The notes under the pieces: model-generated | Told to the model about the DNA's origin: nothing | Database searches by the model: none | What the model saw: only the letters and a program-made list of their open reading frames with translations | Assembly (NCBI GenBank): GCA_018985235.1 | Contig: JADGIG010000001.1 | Span: forward strand, 62,001-91,304 | Reading direction: 5' to 3' | Origin: Sanchytrium tribonematis | Lineage: Eukaryota | Length of the DNA stretch: 29,304 bases | Shown: piece by piece, positions 1 to 26,299 of the stretch | Layout of the letters: every line of letters begins with the position of its first letter | Numbering within the stretch: the first letter of the stretch is position 1 | Position numbers and translations under genes: made by a program

Positions 1-2742
1 GATGCAGATTTCAATTGTGCATATGTCGCATCGTAGCCGGTCTCTTCTAGATCTGCCAGATCGTCGCTTTCTTTAGTAGAAAAAGTTTTTGGGCCAGTTT
101 GAGTCAAATTGATTATTATATCAACAAATTGAGCATAGAGAGATGGCTCTGCCTCCATCATATATGACGAGAGAGCTAGATTTCCAAATCCAACGATACA
201 AATTTTTCTTTGCACTATTCCAACTATATCTTTGGACTGGGGTATTAAAATGCCAGATATGATACTATAAAACATTCTAAATTAAAATGAAATACCCTGG
301 TTGAATGCTCTCCATGGTCTTCACAACATAATCTGGGCCAAAAGCATTATTAGCCAACAAATATGAAACGAATAAAGTGAACTCAACAGCAAATCTTGTC
401 TGCTTATTTGTTTGCAATTTTCCAAGTAGGATGGAAAAAATTTGTTTTGAATGATCTCTAAAAGATTCAAATGGAGTGTAATGGAAAAGTGCTGTCAATA
501 ATTTTAGTGCAAAAGACTCATTCACACGACTATTAAGAAGATTTTGGAAGACACCAAGTAGAGGCAATACTAAATTTCTATCCTGAAAAATATTAGGAGA
601 ATTAATCATGTAGGCTTGAAAAAGACGCACCAACGATTGAACATTAGAGTTAGCTTTCCAAACATCGGGTTTGACCAAAAAACTGAGCAATTCCTTCAGA
701 TTTAGCGGAAGCTGATTTCCAGGATGGGCGTCTAAAAGAACAGTCAAAATCTGGAATATATAAGGGCTAAATTCTATAATTTCCATGTTTAAAATACTCA
801 AGAATATTGGAATGAGCTGTTCATCAAATTGTTGAACCACTTGTGGATTGTTGTTACAACTAAATCGTAATACCATTCCAATCGCCTCAAAAAGGTAGTG
901 GTTAAATTTTGGATTAACCGGGTTTTTGCCAACTCTCTCTAAAAAGTTAAAGAATGTTGTTAATAATACATTATTGTAAGGGCTTACATCTTGCTTTAGA
1001 ACCATTATTAGTCTTACCATGACCTTGAGGTAATAATCATTTTCACTTAAATAAACACCTTCCTTTTTATTTAAGATCGTAAAAAAGGCGGTAAAAATTG
1101 GTTCAATGAGTGTTTGGATGTCTTTACTCTCAAACAACATAATACCATTCTGTTTGACACTCAAGATACGCTCGTAAGCATTAGATATAAAGGTGCACAC
1201 CACAGTATTTGGATTTTCAGATTGTATTTTTAATATATTGGTCAAATTTTCCATAACATTAAAAAGTTGATCCTTTTGGAACAATCCTCTAAAATGTGTT
1301 ATAAAATAAATTGCATCTGCTAGCAATATTGGCGTTGTAGTGGCTGCAAGGTCTGGCATGATGTTTTCTGTTAAAAAGGAACTAAGGACCTCGGCGTAAG
1401 CTGCGGGGTCAATACATACCGAACAAATTAATCTTGTTGCGGTGCTTTTATATTTCCATGAATTAGGATCGTTTTGATTATATAGCTTCAAGAACTCTTT
1501 GACAAATCTCAAACAAGACTGTGTAATGCTAGAGCTTATTGGTGATGATTCTACTAAAACTTTGACAAGCTCTGATGTGGATTTTGTAATGCTGATTGAG
1601 TCACTACCTTCAATTTCTCTTTGGGCATATGTCAGTGGCTCATCTTCAAACAATTCTATATCCTCCCGTCTTACTAATACATTCCCGACAATGACTTTAT
1701 TTACCATAAAATCTATTTCTTCAGTATTTCCATTCCCAACAAAAATGTGGATACCCTTATTTAATTTTATGCACAAAGTAACAACTTGAAGTGCTTTAGA
1801 CATCATTACGTCCCTTGTACTAGTAATCATAATAGAATTATTAAGGGATTCTTCAACTGTGAATGAATATTCTAAAACCAAGTCCCAAACACTTTGAATA
1901 ATCCCATCCAGATATTTGTCAATATCGTCCATGTACTTCGATATCAACGTTTGAATAATATCCAAGATACTTCCTCTAAGCTTCGTCAGCTTTGTTGACT
2001 CGTTTATAAGGCTTTGCTCATGATTTTTATAATTGGCATCTTTCCACAAAAGAAAATAACACCATATTTCACAAAATCTAGGAAGAAAGCCGAGAATTTC
2101 TTCGGGAATGTCGTGAAATATGAAGCAAAGAAATATTTTTGATATATTAATAAATAGCTCCAGTTGAAGATCTCTTTGTTCGATCGGCATCTCATTTGGG
2201 TAATTTGAAAACAAGCTGTCCATATATGGCAGAAGAAGCGGCACAAAAAAAGAGTTGACAGATCCTTTAATATCAGAAACAATCCCATGAGTCAAATCAT
2301 AACTTTTCCAAAGAGAAACATAAGTGTAAATAGTTTCCAATAATAGCATTTGAGTTTCTAAATTACTTTGAGAAAGATATTCTCCTAATATTTTAGGAAG
2401 TTCACTCCAATTATCGGAATCGGCAATAGTTGATATGCAAACACTAATCTGTTGTTTTACGATTTTTGAACAATTTTGTGCAGTCAAAAGATGTAATAAT
2501 TTTTGCTTCAGCATATTCCTAGATTCCAGGTCCATATAGTCATTTTGATGATAATGCCGAATAATAGCGTTTTTTAGAAATACGCTTGCGGTATGAGATA
2601 TAATTTTGTCTGGGTTTGTGGATAAGTCTACAAGGGATAGAAGGGTTGCTGGTTGGTTTTCTACTGAAGACATCAGTGAGGCAGTCGCAGCTTGTTGTGT
2701 TGCAGGATTGAGAGTTTGTTGCAATAATTCTGACAAGCTCAT
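1..2742 (-). CDS. CSE1: Exportin-2 / importin-alpha re-exporter Cse1 (3' partial; exons 2742-296 and 276-<1)
   Basis: Importin-beta N-terminal-like start (ASVFLKNAI), DIELFEDEPLTY, ENDYYLKVMVR and KNPVNPKFNHYLFE motifs. Removing intron 277-295 continues the frame as IQPGMFYSIISGILIP...RKICIVG...TGYDATYAQL, typical of the Cse1 C-terminus, open to the window edge. Confidence 0.95.
277..295 (-). other. 19-nt spliceosomal intron in CSE1 (GTATTTCATTTTAATTTAG)
   Basis: GT..AG ends. Removal joins CCA GG|A ATG and restores the conserved C-terminal reading frame. Confidence 0.9.
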
Positions 2743-2882
2743 TTCAAGGGGGAAAAGATTCCAATGTGTCCTACTGTGTTTATGATATGATTGTTAAAGG
2801 AACTAGATTCATCCAGAGTGAACACAGTGATTAATTATCTCCCGCAAGGCTCATCTATAGTCAAACACAACTTTTTTGAAAC

Positions 2883-3512
2883 ATGGCAAAGGGTGATGCA
2901 TCTACAACAGAAATACTCAAATATTTAAAAGAGACAAATCGTCCATATTCCGCTACAGATATATCATTGAATTTACAACTAAAGAAAACTGCTACTGTCA
3001 AGACATTGGCAGAAATGGCAGAGAATGGAACTTTAGCATTTAAAGAAAATGGAAAACAAGTGATATATTATATGCCACAATTGGATGATGGTCAAACAGC
3101 GGAAGAAGTAGATCAAGAAAAAAATACCATCAAACAATTGATGGAAGACATCACAGTGCTAAAAATCACAGAGCAAGAAAACAATCTTAAGATCCATGAA
3201 ATTAAGAAGTATCCTGATGATGATGACCTGGATCTTCAAATTTCTCAAATGAAAGAAAAAATATCCAAATTATCTGCAAGTTTAGAGGAATTCCAAAAGA
3301 ATCCAATTGATCCGAAAGAAAAAGATCGCATAAACAAGTCTTACACTGATATGATGAAATTATGGAAATCTAGAAAAGCAAAGTGCAAATTTATTGTTGA
3401 AGAACTGGCTGAGAAGATGGAGAAGAAACCAACTGAAATCGTTGAAGTAATGGGACTAGAAACTGATGAAGATTGCGAACAGCTATTCGAAAATTACAAT
3501 AAATACTTATAA
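2883..3512 (+). CDS. HOP2: Meiotic homologous-pairing protein Hop2 (TBPIP/PSMC3IP/Meu13)
   Basis: Winged-helix N-terminus ILKYLKETNRPYSATD...KENGKQVIY, a coiled coil, and C-terminal WKSRKAKC...GLETDE. Confidence 0.92.
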   Translation: MAKGDASTTEILKYLKETNRPYSATDISLNLQLKKTATVKTLAEMAENGTLAFKENGKQVIYYMPQLDDGQTAEEVDQEKNTIKQLMEDITVLKITEQENNLKIHEIKKYPDDDDLDLQISQMKEKISKLSASLEEFQKNPIDPKEKDRINKSYTDMMKLWKSRKAKCKFIVEELAEKMEKKPTEIVEVMGLETDEDCEQLFENYNKYL

Positions 3513-3513
3513 T

Positions 3514-4190
3514 TTATTTTTTACCTCGACCCGTTGGGGATTTTTCATCTGGTTTGTCTGACTTAAAGATAATGGCTGGCTGATTCGAAGATTCGCTTTT
3601 TTGACTTAATGGCAAAAATAATTTGTATTCAGTTGGAAGTTCTTCCTCGCTATATAATCTTTCGCTGAAATATACTCTTCTAATTCGGGTGTTAGCATGA
3701 ATGTCTACTCTTAATGCCTCAATATAGTTTGTGCCATATGCTCTTTTACAGAAATCTGCAAGATTAAACTGAATTTGATTCCAGCCTGGGTCTAACCTCA
3801 TTGGCATTGTGGTGACAAATGGATTTACCTTAGTACTAGAGGTATAATTTGATGCCAAAAATCTTCTTCTTATATTTTGATCGTCTTTAATCTAAATTAA
3901 TATGAAAATACAGCCACCTCAAAGGAAAAACTTTTGTTCATATTTTTGACAATAAGGACAAGGTATGGCAATTTGATACCCAAAGTCTCTTTCTCATTTT
4001 TTGGGCAAGTAATATAGGTAGTAGATGTATTAGCACCAACAATTTCGACAACAGAGCTTTGAATATCATCATCAGTGATTCTCTTAATTGAACCATTTTT
4101 GACATGAGAGTCGTCCCAAATGCCAAGAGGTTTCGAGCCTATAGAGTACATTATGGATAAAAATCCAGATTGAAATGTATTAGCAAACAT
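3514..4190 (-). CDS. CFAP20: Cilia- and flagella-associated protein 20 (Bug22), 218 aa after splicing; exons 4190-3912 and 3891-3514
   Basis: [22 protein letters not shown], and after the intron [16 protein letters not shown]...[15 protein letters not shown]...[18 protein letters not shown]. Very close to canonical CFAP20. Confidence 0.97.
3892..3911 (-). other. 20-nt intron in CFAP20 (GTATTTTCATATTAATTTAG)
   Basis: Removal gives [15 protein letters not shown], collinear with canonical FEVQVLDDKNVRRRF. Confidence 0.95.
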
Positions 4191-4252
4191 TTCAACAAAT
4201 TCAAGCTTTGGCCGATTTCAATTTCTAATTTTTATTTTTCCAAACAAAATTA

Positions 4253-5807
4253 ATGAATTTAGAAGCTTTACCTGTCTACGCAGCACCTGATGCCTACATA
4301 ATGTGCTTGAATCTATTTAATCAAATACAACACAACTCTATAGTTCAATACGGCTGCACCTTTAAAGATAATATTTTAATTATTGGCTGTTTAAAACATA
4401 CAAAGATAGAAAATGCAAATCCCGAATATTTTAATGACTATATTCTACAGCTAGTGCACGCTTTAAAATACCTTGTAGAAGAGGAAATTAATCCAATTTA
4501 CGCCTCAATTAGATTTGTCGGTAGGAAGCTTCTATTAGAAAACTGGTTTTATTCTTTGATTCAAAATTCTGTCGATTCTTTGCCGAACGTAAGCTCTGAG
4601 CACACTATCCAGCGGTTGGTAAAGGAAGTTGTGAATGCATGTGGCCTACGAGAGAGCGACATACCACAAGATTCGAACATATATTATGCTGTACAAGGAA
4701 TGCTGAAAAATGATAATATTATAGATTCAATCAAACAAGCATATGTGATATTAGAAAACAACCACCTTCTACCATTTTCACCAGAAGATTTATTTTATGC
4801 ACCTTTGTCAGGTTATCATTTTTTGTCCTGGGCCATGCAATTTGTAAACATTAAAAAAAACAAGCAGCCAATTTTGTTTTCAATGGAGCCTACATTTGTA
4901 CCAGCTAGGTCCGAGTTCTCTCCACCAACTGTAAGTGGCCCGCTATCTGTTATCAACTTTGACATTATTAACACTTTCAATCAGCACAAAAATTCGGAAA
5001 TTTTCCAAAATGGGTGTACCATCTTAAACAAACTACCTACAAATGATTTGACTTTTGATATTCACAACATTCCTCCTTGGATACGATCTGACGTATATCG
5101 TACTGTCTTTCGTGTGCACAGCAATGTCCAAAGCGATTATTTAAAATATTTAAAAATCATAGATCCCGAAACGACTTCGCAGATAGCTCTAGATGTTCCA
5201 CGCTGTCACAGCTACCATTCTGTATTAAGTTGTCCGACCGGCAGGCATATGCTGAGGAGGATTTTAGAAGTTTGGTGCAATGAAAACAAAGATTTAGAAT
5301 ATTGGCAAGGAATAGACTCGATCGCTGCAACTTTTTTAAATATATTTCTTTTCGATGAATCTATTGCGTATCATTGTTTTTCTACCTTTATAAGGACAAG
5401 ACTTGCTGGTTTATTTAAAAAGGGAGCTAGTGAATTTCCAATGCTTCTGAAATCATGTCAGGACCAAGTCACAAAAGAAATACCAAGACTTCAAGAATTG
5501 GATATTCAACCTGATTTGGTCACAGTTCCATGGTTTCTGACTGCTTTTTCTCGTATCACATATTTATTTAGACGTTTTACCATTTAGGCAGGTGTTTCTG
5601 ATTTGGGATACCCTAATATTCACATGCAATTCGCAAGATGAAACTACACAATTTTTGGTTGATCTGGGTGTTAAAATAATCCAGCACAGTCTTGGTAATT
5701 TGGAAGGCAGTAGTTTTGAAGATGGCCAATCTATGATTGATAAGCTATATGATCTAAGGGACTCAGACCTTCAAAAAATTCTTATAGAAGTAAATTCAAG
5801 CCCTTAG
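4253..5807 (+). CDS. TBCK: TBCK-like Rab-GAP TBC-domain protein, 511 aa; exons 4253-5552 and 5572-5807
   Basis: QIALDVPRCHSY...GRHMLRRILEVW...YWQGIDSIAATFL, and after splicing PWFLTAFSHVLPFRQVFLIWD, match the TBCK-type TBC domain. The N-terminus may be a degenerate pseudokinase. Confidence 0.8.
5553..5571 (+). other. 19-nt intron in TBCK-like gene (GTATCACATATTTATTTAG)
   Basis: Removal yields TCT C|AC GTT TTA CCA (SHVLP) and joins the 5592-5807 ORF in frame. Confidence 0.92.
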
Positions 5808-5823
5808 GTTAATCATAGGATCT

Positions 5824-6873
5824 TTATTTCCAGGTTATTTCGTCAGCAATTCGGAAAATATGGCAAATATTTTCATCATCTACAGAAGCCATCTGGAATG
5901 GTTTGGTAGGATGAAAATCAAAGTCTCCGATCCTGGCATTGTGACCGCCATGTAAAAACAACAATTCTGGAGGAGCTTCGTCATCCGTCATGCCGTTGAT
6001 TTTCATTATATCCCATACAAGCAATCGATTTCCCGCAATACTAGTGAATATACTTGGATGTGTGGGACTATATTTACATTTTAGTACCTCATCGTCGTGA
6101 TATTCGAACTTATGAACTGGAGTTTCGGCATATCTAATATCGTGAAATTCTATTGCATTCCCACAGGACAACAATAAACTTGAAGCGATTGACGGATGAG
6201 TATCGCAGGCTTTTGCATTTGAAGTCGGCAATTTGACAGCTACTTTGTCCGATCTAACATCGAGGATATATGATTTAGGACCAGCAGCTACAACAAGTGA
6301 ACTGTGACTTTTGACCCAGGTTGCTGCCTCGATTTGAGTTTTGTAGTGATACCTTGGACTTATCTTTTGAGAAAGTTGCTCTTCTTCAGTCAAATCCATT
6401 ATTTGGTAGACAGATAGACCCAAGTCGTCACCTACTAAAAGTTGGCCCGGTATCATTGACGAAAACTCAATAGTGTAACCTTCAGCGTCATTTTTGTGAA
6501 TAAGCTGAGGATTGGGTTTCTGGTCAATTTTGTGAGTCACATGCTTGGTTCTATCAAAGATACACACATCTTTCATTTTAGTTGCAATGATTTGATTATT
6601 TTGTGGCATCACATCAAGCGCATTTACCTCAGTCGAATGCGTAATGGACTGATAAATTTTGAAATCTTTTCCATCCTCAAATACATGAACATTTTCAGTG
6701 TCCTGACCAGAAGTATGAGTTCCCAGTACCAAGTAATCCTTTTTTGGGGTAGTATAATATTTACAAGTTAAACTAGGCCACTTGAGAACATGAACTAGTA
6801 GTCTGTCATAGAGAAATGGAGTGTTTTTCTTCCAGCATTTGTATTGTTCCAAATTTTGATCTTGCACCAACAT
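5824..6873 (-). CDS. Histone-binding WD40 protein, RBBP4/Hat2/Msi1 family (divergent, short)
   Basis: YKCWKKNTPFLYD...LKWPSLT, LVLGTHTSG, PPELLFLHGGHNARIGDF and SVDDEN are CAF1C/RBBP4 hallmarks. First ATG is at 6873. Confidence 0.9.
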   Translation of the reverse strand: MLVQDQNLEQYKCWKKNTPFLYDRLLVHVLKWPSLTCKYYTTPKKDYLVLGTHTSGQDTENVHVFEDGKDFKIYQSITHSTEVNALDVMPQNNQIIATKMKDVCIFDRTKHVTHKIDQKPNPQLIHKNDAEGYTIEFSSMIPGQLLVGDDLGLSVYQIMDLTEEEQLSQKISPRYHYKTQIEAATWVKSHSSLVVAAGPKSYILDVRSDKVAVKLPTSNAKACDTHPSIASSLLLSCGNAIEFHDIRYAETPVHKFEYHDDEVLKCKYSPTHPSIFTSIAGNRLLVWDIMKINGMTDDEAPPELLFLHGGHNARIGDFDFHPTKPFQMASVDDENICHIFRIADEITWK

Positions 6874-6975
6874 TTCGACAAGAAACAAGAAACAATAAAG
6901 GGGTTACGTAAATATCGTTCCCCAACTCTTGGCAAGATTTATAGACAATTAGAACATACATTATATAATTCTTCT

Positions 6976-7329
6976 TTATTTTGGAGTAAATTTGAATGTT
7001 AAGACATCATCCAATCTTGATATTTCAACATTTTTGGTCTCTACAGGACGTTGCCATTTATCCTTGAGTTCTGGTAATAAGTCAATCTTTTCGTAGTCTC
7101 CATTTTTTTCAGTCAGAATTGACTGCCATAATTTTTGATCTTGCTTCTTAATATTAACAATCAAAAAATCAGTGAACTGCTCCGTTGAGTAGGTAAACGG
7201 AAATGGAAAGATAAGAACAATGCTCGAGAAATACAATGAGCAACGCTCTTTATGAGTAGGAGGTTCAACACATTGTATCTTTAAAGTATCGATTGTTTGC
7301 CAAAATTTAAATGGGGATCCTTGTGTCAT
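6976..7329 (-). CDS. Small CS-domain (p23/HSP20-like) co-chaperone-like protein
   Basis: FKFWQTIDTLKI and LIVNIKKQDQKLWQSI resemble the first and last strands of CS domains. First ATG is at 7329. Confidence 0.5.
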   Translation of the reverse strand: MTQGSPFKFWQTIDTLKIQCVEPPTHKERCSLYFSSIVLIFPFPFTYSTEQFTDFLIVNIKKQDQKLWQSILTEKNGDYEKIDLLPELKDKWQRPVETKNVEISRLDDVLTFKFTPK

Positions 7330-7464
7330 GCGATGGTTCCTAGTTTTCAATTTATAAGCTAAAAACGAAATCCGATGAGGGAAGTATCTATGCAACGCCA
7401 ATGGATCAGTCGATTCCAATAAGGATCTTGTTGAAACAAAGTTTTAGAATAAAACCATCATCAA

Positions 7465-9869
7465 ATGAGTAGCGAAACTATTATATCTTATCATCAAGTC
7501 TTTGCGACTTACCTTGGCGAAAAAATAGATCCTTCTTCCCGGACAAATGCTAGACAAAAATTATCATTACTTTCAGAGAACCAATTTGGGGAACTAGCCA
7601 CGGATATACATGATGAATTGAAAAGACGTATATCTGTTGAAAAAATTCCATTTTTACAGGTCAGAAGCGATTTTCATCCAAAAAGAAATCAAGCTAGACA
7701 AAAATTGGCTACTTTACCAGAAAAAAGATTTAGAGATTTAGTAATTGATGTTATCGTGGAACTCGAAAGAAGATTTCCAGAACTTAGCACAGAAGAAACG
7801 AGTAGGCAGTCTACCCTTAAAAAAAGTGATCCTGTATTATCCCAAAAACCAGAAACTATTTTGAGTCCTAAAAATGAACTATCACCTTTGACAAAAGCAG
7901 ATGTCGTCCGCGAAGCTTATAATAAAGAATATTTGAGGGAAACGAAAAGTGTACAGGGTTCAGGTGACTTGAATTTTGCCAGCTTAGATTCTCTTATGAA
8001 AGACTTGGGAGATTTGGTAACAGGAAAATCAGATTCGACTGAAGATATTGTTCCTCAAAAGAAGAAGAAAGTCACTGAATCAGTGTTGTCGCTAGAAAAT
8101 TTACCGAAATCAGAGGACACTGCTAAAATTAGGAAGGAAAAAGAACTTTTGGAAAAGAAGTACCGGCAGGTAGAGTCAGATCTTGAGAAAGAAAGATCAA
8201 AAGTTCTTCAATGCCAAAAAGAACTCGGTGCAGCTCAGATTGAGTTGCAGAAGAGTAAATCTGAATTGGAAACCCTGAATTCTAAAAGAGGTGTTATTGA
8301 GAAGGAAGTAGATAGAGTTAAAGAATTGTTGGACAAGGAAAAAGCTCTTAGGCAAGCTGAAAAGCGGGAGCTTGAGCAGAAACTATCTTCAAAAGATTTC
8401 GAAATCCAAGAAAAGCAAAAAATTATTTTAAATATGGAGTCGATAGCGAACCAAAGTCAAAAGGCGCTCGATAAATATTTGAAGGAAATTGACCAACTCA
8501 AGACTGATAATTTGAGGCAGCTAGGAGAAATGAATATATTAAAGAAGAAATTATCCGAATTCGATTCCAAATCAGGCAATTTACACGAACAAGGCAGTCA
8601 AACAAATCTACTCACTGAAATAGATACTAAATCGAAAGATTTAGATCGAGCTTCTTCTCAAAAGCAGAAATCACCTTCTAAACTTGGAAAAAGCGAAGCC
8701 AAATTGGAAGGTGTCCAAAAAAGTTCCGAGAAGGATATCAATGGAGATATTAACAAAACTGATAGTAAAGTTTCAGATAAGAGTGAAAGCGTATCACCAA
8801 ATAAGTTAAAGTCTAAAGTACCAGAATCTTTATCAAAGGCCCCCTCGAGTTCGAAATTGAACGTCGAGAAAAAACCTAATGTTGACATTAACAATCTTCC
8901 ATGGGAAGTTTCACGTAAAACAATCGTTGTGTCGCAATTTTTAGACTCTGTAACCATTGATGATATAACTCCGTCAGTCAAAGGTGGGGTTGTTCCCTCA
9001 AGGCTTGGGGCATTCCAAAATTCTGTAGACACACTTCTCGATTCTCAGAAAAGCGGAGTGCCTGCTGATATTTTAGTAGCTATGAAGTCCATAGTGATAG
9101 CTTGCAAAAACATCACTAACGACATTGAAAAGTTCGAGTCCACGAGTGCTAGCGAAACTGCAAAAGAATCATTAACAGGTTTAAAAACTCAACTTTCTTC
9201 TTCCTTAACGGCATTAATGACTGCGGCCAAAAGCCACGCCACAGGGCTAGCAAAAGGCTCAAGCAAGTCGACTTCTGAGGACATCGAGAGAGGCTGTGAA
9301 GATTTAACAAAAGTGATTATCAATATTTTAAAAATTGCTAAAGTTAAGGCAGAAAAAGTCGATGAAGATGACATACCACTCAAAAAACTAAAAGATATGT
9401 CTCTAACACCGTCTGCAGAAACAAGCCCTCAAAAACAATCCAAATCAGTGATGTCTTCTGCGGATTTGAAAGTAATAATTTTTTAATTTAGACATTTCTT
9501 GAGAAACAGACAGATGTTATTGTTCAAAACATACAGCAATTACTATCACAAATGCGGACGGGAACCTTTGAAAACGAATTTCGGAATACAGTATCTGATA
9601 TATCAATTGTAGTTAAAAATTTATGTACAGTTTGTGAGGATGCCATTATAAGGAGTCCCGGCTATGAATCTCTTCGCACAGGTTCAAAGTCAATTGTGGA
9701 AGATCTGCAAAGAAGTAATGTTGAGCTTTCAAAGCTTGCTGACGAAGTCGTTGCTGCCTACTCAAAAGAGGGTGCTACATCTGAAATTGTACGCGGACTT
9801 AAACAAAAACTCGCTTCATCTAGCTATGAAATAGCAAAATACACCAAAGAACTAGTCAACCTTTTATAA
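7465..9869 (+). CDS. SPA2: Polarisome scaffold Spa2 (GIT/SHD repeats, coiled coil, C-terminal helical domains), 794 aa; exons 7465-9471 and 9492-9869
   Basis: Two Spa2-homology repeats (ARQKLSLLSENQFGELATDIHDELKRR; RNQARQKLATLPEKRFRDLVIDVIVELERRFP). After splicing: LKTFLEKQTDVIVQNIQQLL...KQKLASSSYEIAKYTKELV. Confidence 0.92.
9472..9491 (+). other. 20-nt intron in SPA2 (GTAATAATTTTTTAATTTAG)
   Basis: Removal puts the 9552-9869 ORF in frame and restores the C-terminal domain start. Confidence 0.92.
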
Positions 9870-10169
9870 TTTTAATAGCTCATACGAATAAAACTTTCTA
9901 ACTGATTTTTTAAAATCAGGCTGACGACGTCCTTGCATAATGAGGCTCCGATTGGATCGCCAAATATCCGGTAGTTTCAAAAAAATACGTCATGAGAGCT
10001 TTAAACCTCGATTCAGTTATTTCATGTACTATGGAAATATTTTAACTTTGATTTGGCTCAAAGTTTAGGATGACGCCATATCAAAAATTCAAGCCTTGTC
10101 AAATTTTACTGTGTCCATTATATCTCCTTGTTTCGTGTTTTTTCTTTGTTTCTAATAAATATTCAGAAC

Positions 10170-10301: not shown

Positions 10302-10339
10302 AAAATAAATTTTTTTCTCCACAAAACTTCACAGCCTCT

Positions 10340-11386
10340 ATGACTCAAACTCTCGACGCTTCAACCTTACTAATCGAAGACAAAGAGAATATACCCATCA
10401 AGTCATTGAGCAGCTGCTCCTTCGCAAGGCCAGTAGTGCGACGAATTTGTCCGTCTAGCTGCCCGTTAGCTGCCAATTTTTACTACCTTCTATTTGATAT
10501 CCAATATCAAATGATCATGGTAGAGTCGCAAAACATTCACATTTTCCAAGAGTGTGAGGATAGACAATTTTATGGTTGGATAAAAAAAATGGCATTATGC
10601 CAATTAGAAAGATCGACGGTCTGGCGCGCTTGGTTTATATATCTTTGCACACACAAAAAGTTTATGATAAACGATACCTACTTGGCTACTTGCACTTGGA
10701 TTGCAATAAAATACGACGAAGATGTAGCTCCTGCATTTCATACAATTTTGAAATTATTTGACACTAATCCTAAAGATATCCAAGCCAAAGAAAGGGAAAT
10801 TCTCTGTTCTGTAGATTACAAACTTAACCTATTTACGCCAAACGAGTGGTTAACCTTGTATCTCAGAATGGCAGTTTTACGAACTCCATCTTTGTTTTCT
10901 GAAAAAAATCCCGCTGCTACTGCTAGCTACTTTGAATCCAGAAAAGGCTTAGATCCATACCATGTTCACTATTTGCCTGACATGGCTACGCTTTCTCGTG
11001 CATTTTTTCTCTTGGATATCTTGTCTTTGCACCCGAGCACTAGGCGTGTACCTTACTCTAAAACTGCTGCTGGAATCTTCATGTACATGTTTAATGATGG
11101 TAAATTTTAGTAATATAGACGATTATGTGAAAAAAGTCACTGGTTATCCTGCCCAAGTCCTTGAAGACATTATTGAGACACTCGACGACATTTTAATGTC
11201 ACAGCATATCCCGGAAAATTATATCTTCGATCCCAAAGACCCAGAATGGTAATCTGTAATTTATTTAGGGTCCATGTTCAAAAAATACCAATTTCAAGAA
11301 ATGACATGGAAAATTTGGAAAAGCAACAATTTGAGAACGATTGTATGTTGACGCCAAAAGACTCACCATGTCGAGCATATTCTTAG
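10340..11386 (+). CDS. Divergent cell-cycle cyclin, 335 aa; exons 10340-11099, 11119-11248, 11269-11386
   Basis: Cyclin-box helices LERSTVWRA...ATCTWIAIKYDEDVAP...AKEREILCSVDYKLNLFTPNEWL, then YSKTAAG and KKVTGY in the C-terminal box. Two introns give a continuous frame. Confidence 0.8.
11100..11118 (+). other. 19-nt intron in cyclin (GTAAATTTTAGTAATATAG)
   Basis: Removal gives GAT G|AC GAT TAT GTG AAA AAA GTC ACT GGT TAT (DDDYVKKVTGY). Confidence 0.85.
11249..11268 (+). other. 20-nt intron in cyclin (GTAATCTGTAATTTATTTAG)
   Basis: Matches the intron consensus. Removal extends the ORF by 38 codons to a TAG followed by TAAATT. Confidence 0.75.
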
Positions 11387-11415
11387 TAAATTCCCTCCAT
11401 AAATTTTTTGATACA

Positions 11416-12762: not shown

Positions 12763-12764
12763 AT

Positions 12765-15700
12765 TTACTCGCTTAACTGCCGTCTAAGATTGGATTTGCG
12801 TATGTATCTGACAAACCCGTCATAACCAGTAGTGTAGATATTGAGCTTAGAACTACAAATGCTACTAAGACCACTTGTTTCCGTATTTCCAAGAAACTTT
12901 GAGCCATGTATCTTCTTGTAATTACTTATCATTGATCTATCAGTTAAAGTAAACTGTTTTAAGCTTCCTTCAACACTTCCTGTGAAAAAGCTATTTAGCT
13001 CTGGAGCTACCCAAACAGTGTTGATCGAAGAATTATGAGCGTGGAATGTATCAATCACTTTTCTTTGCCTCAAGTCAATAGTAGTAATCTCTCCTTTTTT
13101 CCCTACACTAATGAGATGATTGTAAGCGGCGGAATATGCAATCCTATGAATGCAATGTTCTGAAACATTAAAAGTATCTATTTCTGCTGTGGAATGTGGA
13201 AGCAAGCTATCATATATAGAAACTTTTCCATTACTACTCGAGTACATTCCTGATGTAGCTAATAAACTACCCGAATTCAGAAAGCAAAAATCTGAACTTG
13301 TTTTATACTTCATCTGGTTTTTAAGTACTGGAGTAGTTCCATGAATCAAATCAAATAGATAAAGCGTACCATCAGAACCCAACGAACCAAATTTTTCTCC
13401 AAAAGGGTCAAAACTGACGCGAACTACAGGTATGTTTTCGATAGGAAATTCTATCATGGTTTTGGTAAGGCCAAATTGGAAAACACCTATCTTTTTTGTA
13501 TCCTCAGACGTGTAGTCGCAAGCATAAATTTTATACTTAGGATTTGGAGCAATATCTTTAGTCAACAATGGTCGACTGAGTTTCACGATGTCATTTATAA
13601 AATGATCACTCATGGAACTAGCGTCGCCACTTTTTTTGACAAATTGCGGCATGGCCCGGTGGAATCCAACATTATTAAGAAAGCTATTATTTCGAGGAAG
13701 TGTCGCTGGTGGATGCTGGCCAGTGTATTCCTCCAATTCAGCTTGAGAGCTCATTTGAGTTAAACTTTCCTCAAATGTATTCTTAGGCACACTCGAAAAA
13801 ATTTCTGAATTCTTACTTTCTGAATTGTTTTGAGATGATTTTGAAGCCATGCTGGCATTATCTGTATCAACATCTTTGTAACAGCACCAAGCATAGTTGA
13901 TATCAATTTCCCACAAGCCTTTACTAGTTGCCATTACCATTTCATTCTCATTTACAACATTCAGGGCACTGGCAAATATACTGGCACCTAATTTGACAAG
14001 ATCCTCAACATAATTGTCATCTGCTTCCACAATGACGTTGGTCTTGGGCTGCTTGGCTTCTTTTTTGCTCAATAGATTTTTTACCAGTCCTTGCATTTTA
14101 GCCCATTCGAAGCACAAATCCCAAACATCTTCCTGACTAGTCGATTGTAAATTGTTTCGAAACTCAATTAGGTCTTTCTCATCCCACAGTAAGTAAAGCT
14201 TCTCTTCTAATGAACTACATTTAATCAACAAAGGCTGAATAATTGCGTCAGAACAGTAATTTTGAAAGCCAATATCTAGTTGGTATTCACCATGGAACAA
14301 TATAATCTCGTGTAGTAAATATCTATAAATAAATAAATCTCCACATATCTTTGATTGCTCACCAGACACTGTATCCGGAAATACATCTTCATGAAATGGC
14401 TGCTTCAAGGATTTGATCAATTGATGTAGCACGTCTTTACAGCAAACCTCCTCTTTTAATAGCGCGAACAATGTTGGTAAACAATTGAGAGCCAGCGCTA
14501 CAGGGCAGTATTTCTTTAGATGAATTCCTGATTCAACCAATACGACAACACCAGTTAATATTAATTGGGGAATACAGGTAAAATTAGATTGATCAGAACA
14601 ATCCATAGCCGTTTTCAAAAGATTGATACTATTCTCATGTAAATACTGCTGCAATTCTATAGGGTTATTTTGCCTTATATTCAGATCAATTAGTAAATTA
14701 CAATACAGTATTAACTCGTTTTCAAAATAGGCTAGTGTCTCGGGGTTTTTGCTCGATATCAAATCAAAAAATAAGGCAAAAGCTCGGTCGTTGATGCAGT
14801 ACCAGAGCATCAATTCGTCTAATATAGAATGATCAATACTTAAATTCATACTCAGCTCATCTAATGATTTCCCAAGACTATCTTTATATGATTCAGCCAA
14901 AATATTCTCATTCTCAACCATTTCGGTAAAAGCAACGACGCTATCAATCAATATAGGAATCCACGAAATTGCCAGCACTTGCTTCGACAGCTCGCTCCAC
15001 TCATCAAGTAGGTCGATTCCGGTAGTCGATAAATCGTATTCGTGAATAGCAACAAGACTCAAAATAGGTGATGAAAGTCTTTTATATGTATTGACTACCT
15101 GATTGATTAATTGCTTTAAATTAAAGTCTAAGTCCATAAAGTGTTCGTTCTTCAACTTAGTTTTGAGTTGACAAGCAATAATAAAAGCACTGGCATCATT
15201 TTCTGTCGACTTTAGTAAAGCAAACGACTGATCAAATTTTTTCAATTTCCACGAGGCCATACTAGCCAAAAATAAATCAGCGCTTGATGACAACTCTTTA
15301 TAGATTTTGTCGGCCAAATCTTGTCTATTTAGAAGGAAGCAGATTGTCAAACTGAGCTGAAAATCACTTAAGTGGTTCGTGCAGATATTTAGGCATTCTT
15401 CAACTGCATTTCCAAGAAGAAAAAATGAAGCAGCCATATGATACTTTTGTTTACCAAGTAACACAAATGCATTTTTACACGCAATTGTTTGATTTTTGAC
15501 GTCTGTAAAGTCTAGTGATAAAAATTTAACAAGTTTTTCTTTTTCAGGATGGCTGTGTTGCTGTTTCCACAGAGCCAAGCATATATTTTTCTTTTGTAAT
15601 GCCAAATACAATATCATAGAGAAAGTAGGATCCTGTTGTTTTATATATTCTTGTTTGGCAACCTTTTCGATGGTAGATTTGTCATTGACAAAATGTATCA

Positions 15701-18641
15701 TTTGATATTGAGAAAATTTAGCCCAGCTAAGTTCCTGAGAAAGCAGATTAATTAGATTTTCCTTTGATTCAGAACAAAATGCAAAATACGCTAATTCTCC
15801 TAGTGACTGATTAAAGTTGTAATTTGGCTCGATCTCCAAAATCTGAGCCTTTTGCAGATTGATATATTCTTGTAGTCTCAAAATCACAAGATACCTAAAT
15901 GCAAACGAGTCTACAGAATGCTGAGCATGTTTAAGTTGTTTGAAACTAATAACAATACCTTTAAGCATTATATGGTCAATGCTAGTCAAGTATTGAAGAC
16001 AATTGCTCTCTAATTTTGATATCAAATATGTCTGCATTTCATCCGTGTAGTCAGTCATTGCCGTTATATCTGTTGTTAAACTAAATCGAACTTGATTCTG
16101 CTGCTCAATAATTTGCGAATAAGTTGTTGGTGGAAACGCACCTCCATGTAAAAAATGATAATATAACCGGATCAAAATACTTTCTACAATGTGCAATTTC
16201 ATCCACATTAGATATTGTATGATAATATTGGGGTGATAATCTGGCAAATATTTTATATTATCGACGATAAATTCTAAAATGTTTGGACTAAATTTGTCAC
16301 CTTGTTGGACACAATTCACAGGGACGATTGAATCTGAATCAATAATGCACAATCTTTGCTGTTTCATCAAACAAACTCCACCATTTTGAAGCCAAGTAAG
16401 ACGGTCGTAAGTTTGATTCAAGGGAAGCCGGCTAAAGACTCTATAGTCATATTGCAAAACATTGTAAGTTTGTTGAGATTTATACTGGCAAACAATTACA
16501 AGCTCGTCATTCGTTAAGACAGCTAGAACATCGCTCTCGTTGGTGCAACTGATCCAATCGATATCACAAACATTAGAAAAAGTGAAAGTGCTAAGTAGTA
16601 TAATTCGCTTGTCCAATATTGAAGCACCGAAAATTAAAACCTCGCAAATGTTAGATTTAGACACAACAATAGCTATATGTTTGGGACTGCATTTGATCAT
16701 TAGTATTCGACCGCCACTTAAATAATCTTTGATATTTAATTCCGACAAAACATGGATTTCACTGTCCACGTGAAAAATTAGTAGCTTGTCTTTTGACAAT
16801 GAAATAAATAAAGCTTTAGATTTCAAATTAGATATAGCCATTTTAGCTTTGTACTTGAGATGTAGAATTGAAGGAGATAAAAATATTCGCATCAAATAAT
16901 CAGACTCAAACGTAACCGAGCTTTGAATTTCAAATTTGAGCTTGTCGTCTGAGAGCGTAAGTTGACCGGTTTCAAGAACATTTTCATTAAATAAAATTAA
17001 TTCTAAATTGAGATTCTCAACAGTAGTTGAAGGAGGACTCATAAAAAATAAATGATTGTTGTAGTCTATAGGAACATAACATTTGGCAGTCATTTCCAGG
17101 TATTCTTTGTTATCTTTAAACTTAATTCGAAAAAAATAAATTTTGAATAAACTAACCAGTATGAAAGCAGGATCGCTAACAATCCATCTCAAGTTTTTTG
17201 GATTAAATTTGTGATCTATTGCTATTTTATCTATTTCTTCTAGAGGCTCGTGAATATCTCTGCCTATTTGATGCGTTACTACCTTCCACAAAATCACGTC
17301 TGTGTCTCGATAAGATAATACATAAGGATATAATTGATCTGGGTGTCTTGTAAAACCAAATGACTCAACATTTTCTTGGAGCAAATGACCCTGAAATTTG
17401 GCAATCAAAGCAACTTTTCTATTTGGGGACTGCCTCATGAAGGCATCTATAAAATCCAAGAAATAAATATGAATATGTCCATTTCTCAAATTTTGAGCGA
17501 TCATGTATAATTTGTACGGACTCATTTCCTCATCAAGAACAACCGGCGGCATGGTATGAAACGTATACACTGAAGAAAAGAAGTAATGGTAATCGGGATC
17601 GTGTTCGTATTTTTCGAATGCATCAGGAATTTTCATCAGAGGAACCACTTTCGCAATGCTACGCGGTTTGGTTTGCATATTTTGTAAAGACCAAAGTAAA
17701 AACTCACCGTTTTTAGAAACTCCAAAAACAAGAACAGGATGCTCGTTGAGCATAAGTCTTACTTTCTGTTGCCAATAGTGTAGAGATTCATCCATAATCA
17801 GAGCAGGGTTAGGTAAATTCTGATTCATAAAAGATATCTCATCTTGCTGTTTTGTGGCAGTCAAATGCTTCACCTTTGAAGTATCCACCATTTTCTCCAA
17901 AACAGATTTGTTAAGCCAATGTAAACTCACGAAATCTTCCTTACTAATATCTGAAAATTTAGAAGGCTCAATTAAACAAGACAGGACTAGTCGATTGTCA
18001 TCTTCCTGGTAAATTCTGGTGGTATTGTCCATGCAGTTTGTCAATAAAATATGTTGGTCATCGCGCCATTCTATATGTAATACAGGTTGAGGATGTTTTA
18101 AATAAATGAATGAATAATCGATGCGCTTGTTTCTTAGCAAATGATGTTTTAATCTCCATACTTTTAGCAAATGGTCTTGGGCGCCGCCACTTACAATAAA
18201 TTTACCATCTTTTGAACATTCTAATAAATGAATTGGGAAAGGCATTTTCATCGAGAACAACCTGCTCAATTGAAAGTCATAAACCCCAAACTCATCCGAT
18301 CCTGCAAACAATCGCTCATTTGAACAACATAATGAATGAACTTCCGAATCGAGTTGAATCTTTTTAACCAACTCACCCGTCATTGTTATCATGGCAATCG
18401 AATTACCATATGAGATAAAGAAATAATCTTTGATTGCTGCTATGGAAGAAATTAGTTGAAAACTCGTATTGCCTAATGTCTCTGCCGGAATTGTTTGAAC
18501 GTATTCTATTTTGTAATCGCATTTGTACAAAATAACAGAGGATCCACTTGCATAAATTAACTCATTGTTGCTACTTAATGAGTAAGATTTGGCATTTGGC
18601 TGTCCTGCTATGGTGTGAAAATTTAGCTGTGCATGACTCAT
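12765..18641 (-). CDS. RAV1: RAVE subunit Rav1 / DmX-like (rabconnectin-3 alpha) WD40 protein
   Basis: N-terminal WD40 propellers (FIYLKHPQPVLHIEWR, LLTNCMDNTTRI), Rav1p_C motif ACKNAFVLLGKQKYHMAASFFLLG, and a DmX-type C-terminal WD40 propeller. ATG 18641 chosen because the ATG at 18692 overlaps UBA4. Confidence 0.9.
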   Translation of the reverse strand: MSHAQLNFHTIAGQPNAKSYSLSSNNELIYASGSSVILYKCDYKIEYVQTIPAETLGNTSFQLISSIAAIKDYFFISYGNSIAMITMTGELVKKIQLDSEVHSLCCSNERLFAGSDEFGVYDFQLSRLFSMKMPFPIHLLECSKDGKFIVSGGAQDHLLKVWRLKHHLLRNKRIDYSFIYLKHPQPVLHIEWRDDQHILLTNCMDNTTRIYQEDDNRLVLSCLIEPSKFSDISKEDFVSLHWLNKSVLEKMVDTSKVKHLTATKQQDEISFMNQNLPNPALIMDESLHYWQQKVRLMLNEHPVLVFGVSKNGEFLLWSLQNMQTKPRSIAKVVPLMKIPDAFEKYEHDPDYHYFFSSVYTFHTMPPVVLDEEMSPYKLYMIAQNLRNGHIHIYFLDFIDAFMRQSPNRKVALIAKFQGHLLQENVESFGFTRHPDQLYPYVLSYRDTDVILWKVVTHQIGRDIHEPLEEIDKIAIDHKFNPKNLRWIVSDPAFILVSLFKIYFFRIKFKDNKEYLEMTAKCYVPIDYNNHLFFMSPPSTTVENLNLELILFNENVLETGQLTLSDDKLKFEIQSSVTFESDYLMRIFLSPSILHLKYKAKMAISNLKSKALFISLSKDKLLIFHVDSEIHVLSELNIKDYLSGGRILMIKCSPKHIAIVVSKSNICEVLIFGASILDKRIILLSTFTFSNVCDIDWISCTNESDVLAVLTNDELVIVCQYKSQQTYNVLQYDYRVFSRLPLNQTYDRLTWLQNGGVCLMKQQRLCIIDSDSIVPVNCVQQGDKFSPNILEFIVDNIKYLPDYHPNIIIQYLMWMKLHIVESILIRLYYHFLHGGAFPPTTYSQIIEQQNQVRFSLTTDITAMTDYTDEMQTYLISKLESNCLQYLTSIDHIMLKGIVISFKQLKHAQHSVDSFAFRYLVILRLQEYINLQKAQILEIEPNYNFNQSLGELAYFAFCSESKENLINLLSQELSWAKFSQYQMIHFVNDKSTIEKVAKQEYIKQQDPTFSMILYLALQKKNICLALWKQQHSHPEKEKLVKFLSLDFTDVKNQTIACKNAFVLLGKQKYHMAASFFLLGNAVEECLNICTNHLSDFQLSLTICFLLNRQDLADKIYKELSSSADLFLASMASWKLKKFDQSFALLKSTENDASAFIIACQLKTKLKNEHFMDLDFNLKQLINQVVNTYKRLSSPILSLVAIHEYDLSTTGIDLLDEWSELSKQVLAISWIPILIDSVVAFTEMVENENILAESYKDSLGKSLDELSMNLSIDHSILDELMLWYCINDRAFALFFDLISSKNPETLAYFENELILYCNLLIDLNIRQNNPIELQQYLHENSINLLKTAMDCSDQSNFTCIPQLILTGVVVLVESGIHLKKYCPVALALNCLPTLFALLKEEVCCKDVLHQLIKSLKQPFHEDVFPDTVSGEQSKICGDLFIYRYLLHEIILFHGEYQLDIGFQNYCSDAIIQPLLIKCSSLEEKLYLLWDEKDLIEFRNNLQSTSQEDVWDLCFEWAKMQGLVKNLLSKKEAKQPKTNVIVEADDNYVEDLVKLGASIFASALNVVNENEMVMATSKGLWEIDINYAWCCYKDVDTDNASMASKSSQNNSESKNSEIFSSVPKNTFEESLTQMSSQAELEEYTGQHPPATLPRNNSFLNNVGFHRAMPQFVKKSGDASSMSDHFINDIVKLSRPLLTKDIAPNPKYKIYACDYTSEDTKKIGVFQFGLTKTMIEFPIENIPVVRVSFDPFGEKFGSLGSDGTLYLFDLIHGTTPVLKNQMKYKTSSDFCFLNSGSLLATSGMYSSSNGKVSIYDSLLPHSTAEIDTFNVSEHCIHRIAYSAAYNHLISVGKKGEITTIDLRQRKVIDTFHAHNSSINTVWVAPELNSFFTGSVEGSLKQFTLTDRSMISNYKKIHGSKFLGNTETSGLSSICSSKLNIYTTGYDGFVRYIRKSNLRRQLSE

Positions 18642-18667
18642 TGCAAAGTTTGAAAAATTAAAATTTA

Positions 18668-19738
18668 TTATAAAAAATTCGCTTCGTCGCATAAAGTTTT
18701 ATAGCCGCCTAAAAAATTGTAAGTAGACATATCAAAATTCAAATTAGAATATGCTATAAAAGAATCATGGCCTCTGCGGCAAATAAAAATTATGTGTTTT
18801 TGAAAGCTAACGTGACTTAAAATTAAATTTTTGCATTTTTCAGGATTAAATATGATGTGATTAATTGGAACATTTATGGAATTTGGAATATTATATACGG
18901 AATATTTCTCCGCCGGCCTGACATCGACAATTAAACTGTTGTCTTTAATGGACAGAAATGTATCAAGGTCGATCCCTTCATAGGATTTTTCACACACAGG
19001 CGATTCTATAGGATATTTTTTAGTACCGCAAGCACCACAAGATGATTGGATGGGTCGAAGCTTCACCTTTCGTATATCCCATGTATTGAATTGGATCCTG
19101 AGCAAGGTAGATTTCAAATTTGAATTTCCAAGGAGAATATTGTTGACTTCAATAGCTTGAAGACACCCGAATGTTCCTGGTACTGATCCAATTACTCCCA
19201 TATCATCGCAACTGCTTATAATGGGAGGCAGGCAAGGATTAATGCATCTATAACATGCAGAATTCGGAAAAAAAGTAGTAATTTGTCCTTGTAGTGCTAC
19301 AGCGCTTGCAGATACCCAAGGCTTTTTATAAATTAGACAGGCCTCGTTGATCAGGTACTTTGACATCGGGTCATCCACGCAATCCACTATGACATCGTAA
19401 TTTTCAACCATGTTGGAATTTTCTTTAGTGAAATGCGATTCTATTTTCAAGTTAGGCATTGATTTTAGTAAAGACTCACTTTTCTTCACCCCAATGTTGT
19501 TTGAATGCAAATATTGTCGATGAATATTAGATTCTTCAACTAAATCGTCATCAGAAACTCCAACAGTAATTCCAGAGAAGTAGAGGTATGGAATGCATGT
19601 ATTACCTAACCCGCCACAACCTATTACAAGCACTTTGGAATTACGTAGTATGTTGTGCTTTGTTAAACCGAGAATTCCCATTTGCCTAGCATAGAGATTT
19701 AAATCGTGAGTAGCAACTGTTGAAAATTTTGGTTTCAT
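18668..19738 (-). CDS. UBA4: Adenylyltransferase/sulfurtransferase Uba4/MOCS3
   Basis: YARQM, VLVIGCGGLG, SNIHRQ, CYRC, SCDDMGVIG, CGACG and rhodanese CRRGHDS. Confidence 0.93.
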   Translation of the reverse strand: MKPKFSTVATHDLNLYARQMGILGLTKHNILRNSKVLVIGCGGLGNTCIPYLYFSGITVGVSDDDLVEESNIHRQYLHSNNIGVKKSESLLKSMPNLKIESHFTKENSNMVENYDVIVDCVDDPMSKYLINEACLIYKKPWVSASAVALQGQITTFFPNSACYRCINPCLPPIISSCDDMGVIGSVPGTFGCLQAIEVNNILLGNSNLKSTLLRIQFNTWDIRKVKLRPIQSSCGACGTKKYPIESPVCEKSYEGIDLDTFLSIKDNSLIVDVRPAEKYSVYNIPNSINVPINHIIFNPEKCKNLILSHVSFQKHIIFICRRGHDSFIAYSNLNFDMSTYNFLGGYKTLCDEANFL

Positions 19739-19855
19739 CCACTCGAGGGATATTTCGCAAATCAATTAGATAAAGCAATTGCATATTATGAATGCGAATA
19801 CTTAATTTAAGAACATGATAGCAATCAACAGAATTTCCTGAAACACCTAAATCTT

Positions 19856-20434
19856 ATGGATGACAAACAGATGATATCAGCAGGACTAGCTGGCAGCCCG
19901 GACCCTTCAAAATCTTTGGTAATTAGCAAGCTTACAAATTTAGTTTTATCTGATCAATCTACTGACTTTATAGAAAAGCAAAAGAAAATCAATGAATTTA
20001 GTCTTGAATTACACCATCAACAGCAGACAGATACAGCCCTGCTGCATCACAGGATCCATTTTTTAACAAGGATAATCATGGTAGGTGCTCATTATGTTAA
20101 AAAAATGCAAGAAACTGTTGTAATTTTAAAGAAAGATCAAGTACAATTGTCGGAGCGTGTTGAAAAGCACGATTCTGAAGTAAACCAATTGAATCACAAT
20201 ATAGATCAATTAAGGGATCAAATGACAAATGAACTGGGACGAATTGAAAAACTTGAGGCTTCCTTCAGAATTGCAAATATTTCAAAATATTTATTATACG
20301 TTATTATCTCGTATTTAATTTTGAGACGCAAGTATAAAAGCTTAGGGTCGTTGGCCGCTTTTTATGGTTTATTGAACCAAAAGGATTTGATAGTTAATTC
20401 TTTAAAAGACAAAATACTGAAATATTACATTTAA
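19856..20434 (+). CDS. Hypothetical coiled-coil protein with a C-terminal hydrophobic segment
   Basis: 192-aa ORF filling the space between neighbours, with heptad repeats and YLLYVIISYLIL. Confidence 0.7.
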   Translation: MDDKQMISAGLAGSPDPSKSLVISKLTNLVLSDQSTDFIEKQKKINEFSLELHHQQQTDTALLHHRIHFLTRIIMVGAHYVKKMQETVVILKKDQVQLSERVEKHDSEVNQLNHNIDQLRDQMTNELGRIEKLEASFRIANISKYLLYVIISYLILRRKYKSLGSLAAFYGLLNQKDLIVNSLKDKILKYYI

Positions 20435-20435
20435 T

Positions 20436-20714
20436 TTACTTCTCCAGCATTTTGTCTTTGATTTGCAATGAAAATGTGTTGGGCTTCGTTTCCTTTATTT
20501 CTGCGACATGATTATTAAGTAAATAAATTACTCCATTGGCATGTTCGATTTCCTTTTTAATATCATCATCACTGGTCAATTGTTTGTTATTTTTAAAAGA
20601 AGTTCTAGTTCGATCTAAAGCCCCTCGAAGAGCTTCTGGACTATTCTTAAAAAGCAGGCGTTCAGTTTTTAAAAGCTTTTTATAGAGTGACAGAATTTTT
20701 AACTTTTTGCTCAT
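20436..20714 (-). CDS. MZM1: LYR-motif protein, probably complex III assembly factor Mzm1/LYRM7
   Basis: ILSLYKKLLK..LF.N...L......R..F, then LLNNHV and FSLQI, fit the LYRM7 layout. Confidence 0.7.
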   Translation of the reverse strand: MSKKLKILSLYKKLLKTERLLFKNSPEALRGALDRTRTSFKNNKQLTSDDDIKKEIEHANGVIYLLNNHVAEIKETKPNTFSLQIKDKMLEK

Positions 20715-20727
20715 AACAAGGGGTGAT

Positions 20728-21298
20728 TTATTTGACTTTCTTTGACTTAACGTGCAAATTATATACTCTTGATACAGCTAAGTTATGATTAATTACTGAC
20801 TTGCAAAGTGGTGATTATTTTTTTTAAAAGTTTTCTTTGATCTCCAATAGATTTTTTCTTACTTTCAACTTCTTCTTGTCTAATCTCTAGCATTTTTATA
20901 GCGTCATCTAATGGATATTCAACCATCAGGGTATTGCTAAGCCAGATATTAACGTTTTGCAATGGTTCCACAGTTCCATCTGCATACAATGAATCAGCCA
21001 ACTGAAATTTAGTTTTTAAAGTTTTTTGTTGCTTTAAATCAGTAATGACTTCTATATCTTTCTCAAGCTCTCTCTTCTTCTCATTTAATTCACTTACTGT
21101 GGAGACTGTATATGTTTCTTGCTTTTGGGCCATTTGTAATAAGTTTTGCAGATGGTTAATTACAATTGCTGCTGAACTTTCAGTCAACTTTTCTAATAAA
21201 TTTTGTTCAACATGTTGAACAGCTTGGATAGTCTGCCATTTGTTAAAAGGTGAAGGCAAATCTTCAACTTTGACAAATCTAGGTTGTTCTTTGGACAT
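20728..21298 (-). CDS. PAC10: Prefoldin subunit 3 (Pac10/VBP1), 183 aa; exons 21298-20797 and 20777-20728
   Basis: TKFQLADSLY, VNIWL...MVEYPLDDA, and after splicing ITTLQVTVSRVYN (canonical TT.EV.MARVYN). Confidence 0.88.
20778..20796 (-). other. 19-nt intron in prefoldin 3 (GTAATTAATCATAACTTAG)
   Basis: Removal restores the conserved RVYN C-terminal motif. Confidence 0.9.
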
Positions 21299-26280: not shown

Positions 26281-26299
26281 TTAGAAGTGAGCATAAATT
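26255..26299 (-). repeat. Right arm of perfect 45-bp inverted repeat; spans the TAA-ATG junction at 26283-26278
   Basis: TTGAGCTTTATTTTAAGTATTGGCATTTAGAAGTGAGCATAAATT on the + strand, with a 512-nt spacer to the left arm. Confidence 0.95.

Follow-up and report, generated by a model that had tools for sequence, protein, structure and literature searches.

Introns of 19-20 nucleotides, very probably spliceosomal, in six genes of a likely sanchytrid fungus

The 29,304-nucleotide (nt) stretch of contig JADGIG010000001.1 analysed here, referred to as the window, is compact coding DNA. Genes cover 94% of it, the median intergenic gap is 41 nt, and 23 genes were counted. Six of these, encoding CSE1, CFAP20, a TBC-domain protein, a Spa2/GIT-like protein, a cyclin and prefoldin subunit 3, are interrupted by seven short segments, two of them in the cyclin gene, at a density of ~0.25 per kb. 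An earlier note on this DNA had described the segments as spliceosomal introns of 19-20 nt. All seven coordinates and lengths given there are right (four of 19 and three of 20 nt), each segment runs from GT to TAG on the coding strand, and the comparisons of sequence described below indicate that they are very probably real introns. The seven segments are as follows.

277 to 295, minus strand: intron 1, 19 nt, phase 2, in CSE1/exportin-2 (exon 1, 296-2742; exon 2 continues past the window start)
3892 to 3911, minus strand: intron 2, 20 nt, phase 0, in CFAP20 (exons 3912-4190 and 3514-3891; spliced product 218 amino acids, aa)
5553 to 5571, plus strand: intron 3, 19 nt, phase 1, in the TBC-domain gene (exons 4253-5552 and 5572-5807)
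9472 to 9491, plus strand: intron 4, 20 nt, phase 0, in the Spa2/GIT-like gene (exons 7465-9471 and 9492-9869; spliced product 794 aa)
11100 to 11118, plus strand: intron 5, 19 nt, phase 1, in the cyclin gene (exon 1, 10340-11099; exon 2, 11119-11248)
11249 to 11268, plus strand: intron 6, 20 nt, phase 2, in the same cyclin gene (exon 3, 11269-11386; spliced product 335 aa)
20778 to 20796, minus strand: intron 7, 19 nt, phase 1, in prefoldin subunit 3 (exons 20797-21298 and 20728-20777; spliced product 183 aa)

Every segment starts with GTAW and, counted from the 3′ end, has T at -8, A at -6 and T at -3. The interiors contain 9 G/C per 108 nt (92% A/T), compared with 34.7% GC across the window. 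None of the lengths is a multiple of three, and read-through meets a stop inside the intron in six cases and 11 codons further on in the seventh. The introns lie at relative positions 0.43-0.91 along the coding sequence, and no ribosomal-protein gene is among their hosts. Six of the seven fall within its final quarter (post hoc p ~0.001, or 0.005 by gene, over six genes), a late placement that is the opposite of the 5′ bias reported for Stentor and yeast.

The claim that removal of the segments restores conserved proteins holds as exact joins in CSE1, CFAP20 and Spa2 and through alignments that end at the junction in prefoldin and the TBC-domain gene; it does not extend to the two cyclin introns. 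For CSE1 and CFAP20, candidate introns were scored against profiles of full-length homologs. The Pfam family CAS_CSE1 is matched over positions 1-292 before the junction and 290-382 after it, and the claimed intron ranked first of 95 frame-restoring candidates (460.8 bits; runner-up 447.3). Similarly, CFA20_dom is covered over positions 1-93 on exon 1 of CFAP20 and 93-184 on exon 2, and the claimed intron was the best of 133 candidates (361.9 bits; runner-up 355.1). The CFAP20 junction is spanned by 72 of 120 homologs, 68 of them ungapped. Among the same 120 homolog open reading frames (ORFs), 26 have their start precisely at residue 94, in most cases after a Gln codon, and a read-through insert occurs there in two; the intron position is therefore common to distant eukaryotes. 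CFAP20 itself shares 70-78% identity with typical homologs and is extended at its C-terminus by ~30 residues.

In the Spa2/GIT-like protein, the Pfam domain GIT1_C begins at the acceptor. This last domain is present in 93 of 150 homolog matches, and 89 cross the junction, all except one ungapped (88 of 89). Of the 57 more distant homologs that lack this domain, five have a read-through-like tail at the site, as judged by a loose pattern. The Pfam Prefoldin match of prefoldin 3 ends at position 112 of 120, and the alignment of the ortholog from Amoeboradix gromovi to prefoldin-3 in the PDB stops at the junction. Alignments of the TBC-domain protein, which we take to be TBCK-like, to PDB TBC structures also stop at the junction, and the claimed intron is the shortest of 22 frame-restoring candidates. 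At five junctions, the claimed segment is the shortest frame-restoring GT/GC..AG segment among 13-59 candidates per junction. For introns 5 and 6, the evidence consists of motif and frame only. The cyclin gene has a Cyclin_N match in Pfam, the ESM Atlas confirmed exon 1 only as cyclin, and exons 2-3 gave no match in Pfam or the PDB. An alternative frame-restoring segment of 22 nt, lacking the motif, exists for intron 5. Intron 6 is the weakest of the seven because an unspliced product of 297 aa may be made instead. The protein presumably resembles the animal-type cyclin E kept by some zoosporic fungi; the domain confirmed in it is Cyclin_N.

The source of the DNA could be narrowed by comparison with relatives. 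The nearest named relative is A. gromovi (Sanchytriomycota), whose CSE1 is 52% identical, compared with 25-28% in other eukaryotes, and whose prefoldin 3 is 77% identical; CSE1, SPA2 and prefoldin 3 all lie on one A. gromovi contig. The identities and the gene linkage refine what had been called a fungal-type genome to that of a likely sanchytrid, from a phylum placed as sister to Blastocladiomycota. The linkage may persist in another relative too, as its CSE1 (P0002) and Spa2 (P0156) both list a longest ENA contig of 13,847 nt.

The relatives' proteins in the collection are unspliced ORFs, so that their tails run into the intron. All nine close-ortholog proteins, from A. gromovi and from ENA records, are broken at the same codon as in the window (CSE1, 3/3; prefoldin, 4/4; Spa2, 2/2). 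The tail of A. gromovi CSE1 (P0004) reaches its stop 19 nt past the donor, and those of the prefoldin orthologs P0151-P0154 reach theirs at 20 nt. These five tails end in L/F-I-stop, an ending with a chance of ~0.004 per tail under an A/T-rich null; provided that the stop codon corresponds to the acceptor TAG, it encodes T at -8 and A at -6. In the Spa2 ortholog P0156, 19 nt are read before translation runs on into a recognisable exon 2 in its +2 frame. Here too position -6 is an A, giving A at this position in six of six decoded tails. The other Spa2 ortholog, P0155, has its stop at intron bases 13-15, like the window, and the CSE1 orthologs P0002 and P0003 meet an immediate stop and hence give no length. 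The prefoldin orthologs are 66-82% identical to each other, and their tail interiors differ. Because the tails decode to 19-20 nt with the same 3′ ending, the tiny size and the 3′ motif appear to be common to at least five lineages. DNA of the relatives was also sought in two metagenome scans, in which none of 457 pattern matches and, in the second, one of 138 was confirmed. The latter (L001, on a 65%-GC contig) proved to match an unrelated gene and was dropped.

The ortholog tails bear directly on whether the segments could be assembly or amplification frameshifts, or the remains of decayed genes that resemble introns by chance. Sanchytrid genomes were produced by whole-genome amplification, and the window has one likely assembly fault elsewhere (26263-26292). 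Such errors would not be expected to produce the same break codon in nine of nine close-ortholog proteins from separate records, nor a common motif and exact homolog joins. Contigs of DNA run X1, a possible source of the assembly and so not independent, have no indel at any of the seven sites. The frameshift explanation is largely refuted by the ortholog conservation, and we give it next to no weight.

We also asked how often such segments arise in the window. Scanning both strands for GT/GC..AG segments of 14-60 nt returned 12,532, of which 599 lengthen an ORF. All four motif positions are present in 10 of the 599. These ten are the seven introns and three segments of 26-50 nt antisense to real genes. 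The scan gave no further intron and no longer one, in keeping with the statement in the earlier note that no longer intron is needed. The strict motif has four matches at 19 nt and four at 20 nt, compared with ~0.1 per length in 200 shuffles; there are no matches in the window at 18 nt or 21 nt, and five altogether at the other 25 lengths within 14-40 nt. The eighth match at 19-20 nt (22995-23014, minus strand) is antisense to a 593-codon ORF and joins nothing, and was taken as chance. Three other candidates were rejected: removal of 25074-25092 (plus strand) or 28595-28610 (plus strand, 16 nt) would shorten the respective ORF, and 20417-20439 (minus strand, 23 nt) does not have A at -6. The motif filter is partly circular because the motif was derived from the seven segments, and leave-one-out motif scores are just 1.2 and 1.6 bits for two of them; the ortholog tails therefore provide the independent test. 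Together, all seven window introns and the six decoded ortholog introns are 19-20 nt long, and none of another length is needed in 29 kb.

Several points weigh against reading the segments as spliceosomal introns of this size. The motif by itself is insufficient, as it has three more 19-20-nt matches in the window, one of which (25074-25092) is on the coding strand of an open ORF. In two of the seven introns, the branch-region motif is TTAT rather than TAAY, and the putative branch point is assigned by position only. The ortholog introns were decoded from protein rather than DNA, with the stop assumed to be the acceptor TAG. Exon 2 of the TBC-domain gene alone has no Pfam or PDB match, no homolog spans the cyclin introns, and a PDB search with the cyclin gave no true match. 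Finally, seven introns per 29 kb are too few to define a genome-wide length range.

The spliceosomal nature of the segments, as the earlier note proposed, is borne out by homology, conserved position and motif, to the extent that sequence can speak to it. All seven have the GT..YAG ends of U2-type introns, and position is conserved with a free interior in nine of nine close orthologs of three genes and, at the CFAP20 site, in 26 of 120 distant ORFs. The placement typical of microsporidian introns, just after the start codon and mainly in ribosomal-protein genes, is not seen. Removal by an Ire1/tRNA-ligase pathway, or by the minor U12 spliceosome, could be proposed on the grounds that fungal HAC1 introns are of similar length (~20 nt) and that a branch point near the acceptor is also a U12 trait. 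However, GT..AG ends and A/T-rich interiors are found in seven of seven, the donor columns hold only GTAW without the extended U12 donor consensus, the cleavage consensus that Ire1/HAC1 introns have in stem-loops at both ends is missing from the boundary sequences, and the intron site in CFAP20 coincides with that of far longer introns elsewhere in eukaryotes. We consider either route very improbable. We are highly confident that these are ordinary U2-type introns that shrank to 19-20 nt in a likely sanchytrid, most of them probably inherited at old positions.

How such introns might be recognised is suggested by their fixed geometry. Each would be recognised as a single unit, by intron definition. 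The A at -6 may serve as the branch point, giving a lariat loop of 14-15 nt and a tail of 5 nt, and the acceptor would be the TAG five bases past the branch A, chosen by distance. Overall length and a fixed branch-to-AG distance may thus take the place of a polypyrimidine tract. Deletion bias in a compact parasite genome, in which the median gap is 41 nt, likely pressed the introns to a floor near 19 nt. The 3′ geometry matches the branch-A distance of Stentor and the two-base spacing of Yarrowia lipolytica, the latter a fungal precedent; the extreme feature of these introns is the short 5′ loop.

Transcripts that escape splicing would probably be removed by nonsense-mediated decay. The introns might be real yet poorly spliced, as in Encephalitozoon, in which case truncated products of read-through would also arise, or decay, in bulk. 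The short introns of E. cuniculi are spliced at <20% (PMC6349667) and the 16-17-nt introns of M. mackini at 63% and 37% (PMC10245619), and the late position of six of the seven window introns, in the final quarter of the coding sequence, makes truncation less costly. Against this, the CFAP20 intron bisects its domain, exon 2 sequences remain conserved, and the nucleomorph introns of 18-21 nt are mostly spliced at 90-100%. Poor splicing seems unlikely to us, though it deserves to be kept in mind.

The earlier note took introns of this size to imply a modified spliceosome. A changed machinery is no more than a possibility here, as A. gromovi annotates the core factors and Stentor splices shorter introns with largely conserved machinery. 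In yeast, Slu7 and Prp18 are dispensable at a short branch-to-acceptor distance, and the shortest natural distance is 10 nt; the corresponding distance in the window introns is 5, measured from the putative branch A. We examined the eggNOG annotation sheet of A. gromovi in the supplement of PMC8371127, which has 3,755 rows. Prp8, Brr2, SF3B1, U2AF1, U2AF2, BBP and U1-70K are all included, indicating that the major spliceosome is present in the lineage, and Upf1 is listed too. Slu7 and Prp18 had no matches there by name or by identifier, with only half of the proteins annotated. This absence is weak evidence because of that coverage and because split genes drop out. BBP/SF1 is listed as two ORFs on one A. 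gromovi contig (rows 1135-1136), as an unrecognised intron would give. A comparison of the window with Rfam gave no matches and no small nuclear RNA.

The earlier note had further predicted that these genes would be mis-annotated. The genes are indeed cut short in public proteins; the cause, however, is ORF calling without any intron model and not a 20-nt minimum intron. The published sanchytrid proteomes came from TransDecoder run on genomic contigs (PMC8371127), and the main text of that paper names introns only in a reference title. By exact look-up in EukProt, the unspliced window ORFs are present for CSE1 (821 aa), TBC (444), Spa2 (673, with a separate 105-aa piece), cyclin (256) and prefoldin (169). 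Eight of the ten sequences asked for were found, and five of the six genes are listed in truncated form. Both 97-aa pieces of CFAP20 were absent from the same look-up, and no window-encoded protein tops a CFAP20 search. A default floor of 100 aa applies in ORF calling, which would explain the missing CFAP20 pieces. The authors of the sanchytrid paper made additional BLAST checks for missing proteins, and CFAP20 had no matches in the readable parts of the supplement (PMC8371127). Since six of 23 genes carry introns, five are truncated in EukProt and the CFAP20 pieces are absent, re-annotation may be required before the reduced flagellum and metabolism of this phylum are compared with those of others; the present data do not show any published absence to be wrong.

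A broader proposal can be put forward tentatively, and we find it rather doubtful as a whole. Introns of 19-20 nt only might be phylum-wide, an independent, ruler-defined origin in fungi and the shortest genome-wide class in opisthokonts; Slu7 and Prp18 might have been shed as a consequence of the five-base distance between branch A and AG; and, with about a quarter of genes split, some published sanchytrid gene absences, flagellar and metabolic, might be artefacts of intron-blind ORF calling.

Other features of the window were noted. Gene packing is extreme, with gaps of 1-2 nt between convergent genes (3512/3514, 12762/12765 and 20434/20436) and a 14-nt gene overlap at 25240-25253. The RAV1 ORF of 1,977 codons has no intron. 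CFAP20 and a DUF5745 protein (21830-22423) are kept despite the non-motile flagella of sanchytrids; the latter is presumably a centrosomal CEP95-like protein. A 54-nt inverted repeat, 94% complementary, pairs 25694-25747 with 26250-26303 in a dsRBM gene, where a stop and a start lie back to back at 26280/26281. The X1 contig has 88 different letters in place of 26264-26291. An assembly fault at 26263-26292, within the inverted repeat, is therefore likely, and a single gene may underlie the ORFs 25240-26280 and 26281-26631. Minor-allele bubbles are seen in X1 contigs at 15060-15171, 19915-20002 and 26487-26611, each carrying 4-6 substitutions and accounting for between a fifth and a quarter of the depth; none coincides with an intron.

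Compared with known short-intron systems, the window introns at 19-20 nt are smaller than those of Encephalitozoon (~25 nt), Rozella (~30 nt) and the myxobolid medians (22 nt), and larger than those of Stentor and Mikrocytos (15-17 nt). Their proposed place among the shortest in opisthokonts is upheld by the literature compared, with the caveat that myxobolids have length classes of 20-27 nt, and if spliced they would be shorter than any fungal introns reported in that literature. We found no description of sanchytrid introns in a literature search that left most subscription journals outside its reach.

The heterotrich ciliate Stentor coeruleus has introns of 15-16 nt (PMC9505925) and splices these shorter introns with largely conserved machinery. 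Similar to the window introns, they begin with GUA, are AU-rich, place the branch A (putative here) six bases from the 3′ end with a 5-nt tail, come in two adjacent lengths and occur in about one gene in four to five. Stentor is, however, an unrelated lineage; the introns here are 4 nt longer, with a lariat loop of 14-15 rather than 10-11 nt and a conserved T at -8, and are 3′-biased where those of Stentor are 5′-biased. The nucleomorph introns of the chlorarachniophyte Bigelowiella natans, 18-21 nt with a mode of 19 (PMC6009652; bioRxiv 10.64898/2026.07.09.736142), are GT-AG introns of the same length class, but have no discernible branch A and occur several per gene, whereas a fixed -8/-6 motif and a normal nucleus are found here. 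Mikrocytos mackini, with introns of 16-17 nt (PMC10245619), is likewise a parasite with narrow sizes and conserved intron sequence; unlike the present case, it is a rhizarian with shorter introns and a spliceosome of 17-19 proteins, and A. gromovi still annotates U1-70K, U2AF and BBP.

Among opisthokont parasites, myxobolid and dicyemid introns have medians of 22-27 bp, the myxozoan median of 22 bp being reported in 2026 as the animal record (PMC13644364). They share the GTa donor, ancestral positions and the lack of a real polypyrimidine tract, but their lengths are broader (classes of 20-27 bp) and their A residues recede from the AG with length, in contrast to the fixed A at -6 here. Microsporidia and Rozella are fungal relatives that also have short GT-AG introns; these are longer, ~25 nt in E. 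cuniculi and ~30 nt in Rozella (PMC6349667), and in microsporidia they directly follow the start codon of ribosomal-protein genes, unlike the mostly late introns in varied genes of the window. In Yarrowia lipolytica, two bases likewise separate the branch motif from the AG and a polypyrimidine tract is lacking, but its long introns (median 204 nt) carry a strong ACTAAC motif (PMC2483917). By their testable features, the window introns belong to the ultra-short U2 class, which appears to have arisen anew within Fungi. Introns of this class show how small an intron a spliceosome can still process, and every additional origin is a test of whether the limit and its geometry hold universally. The 19-20-nt introns described here, with the putative branch A placed as in Stentor, add a case from a true fungus.

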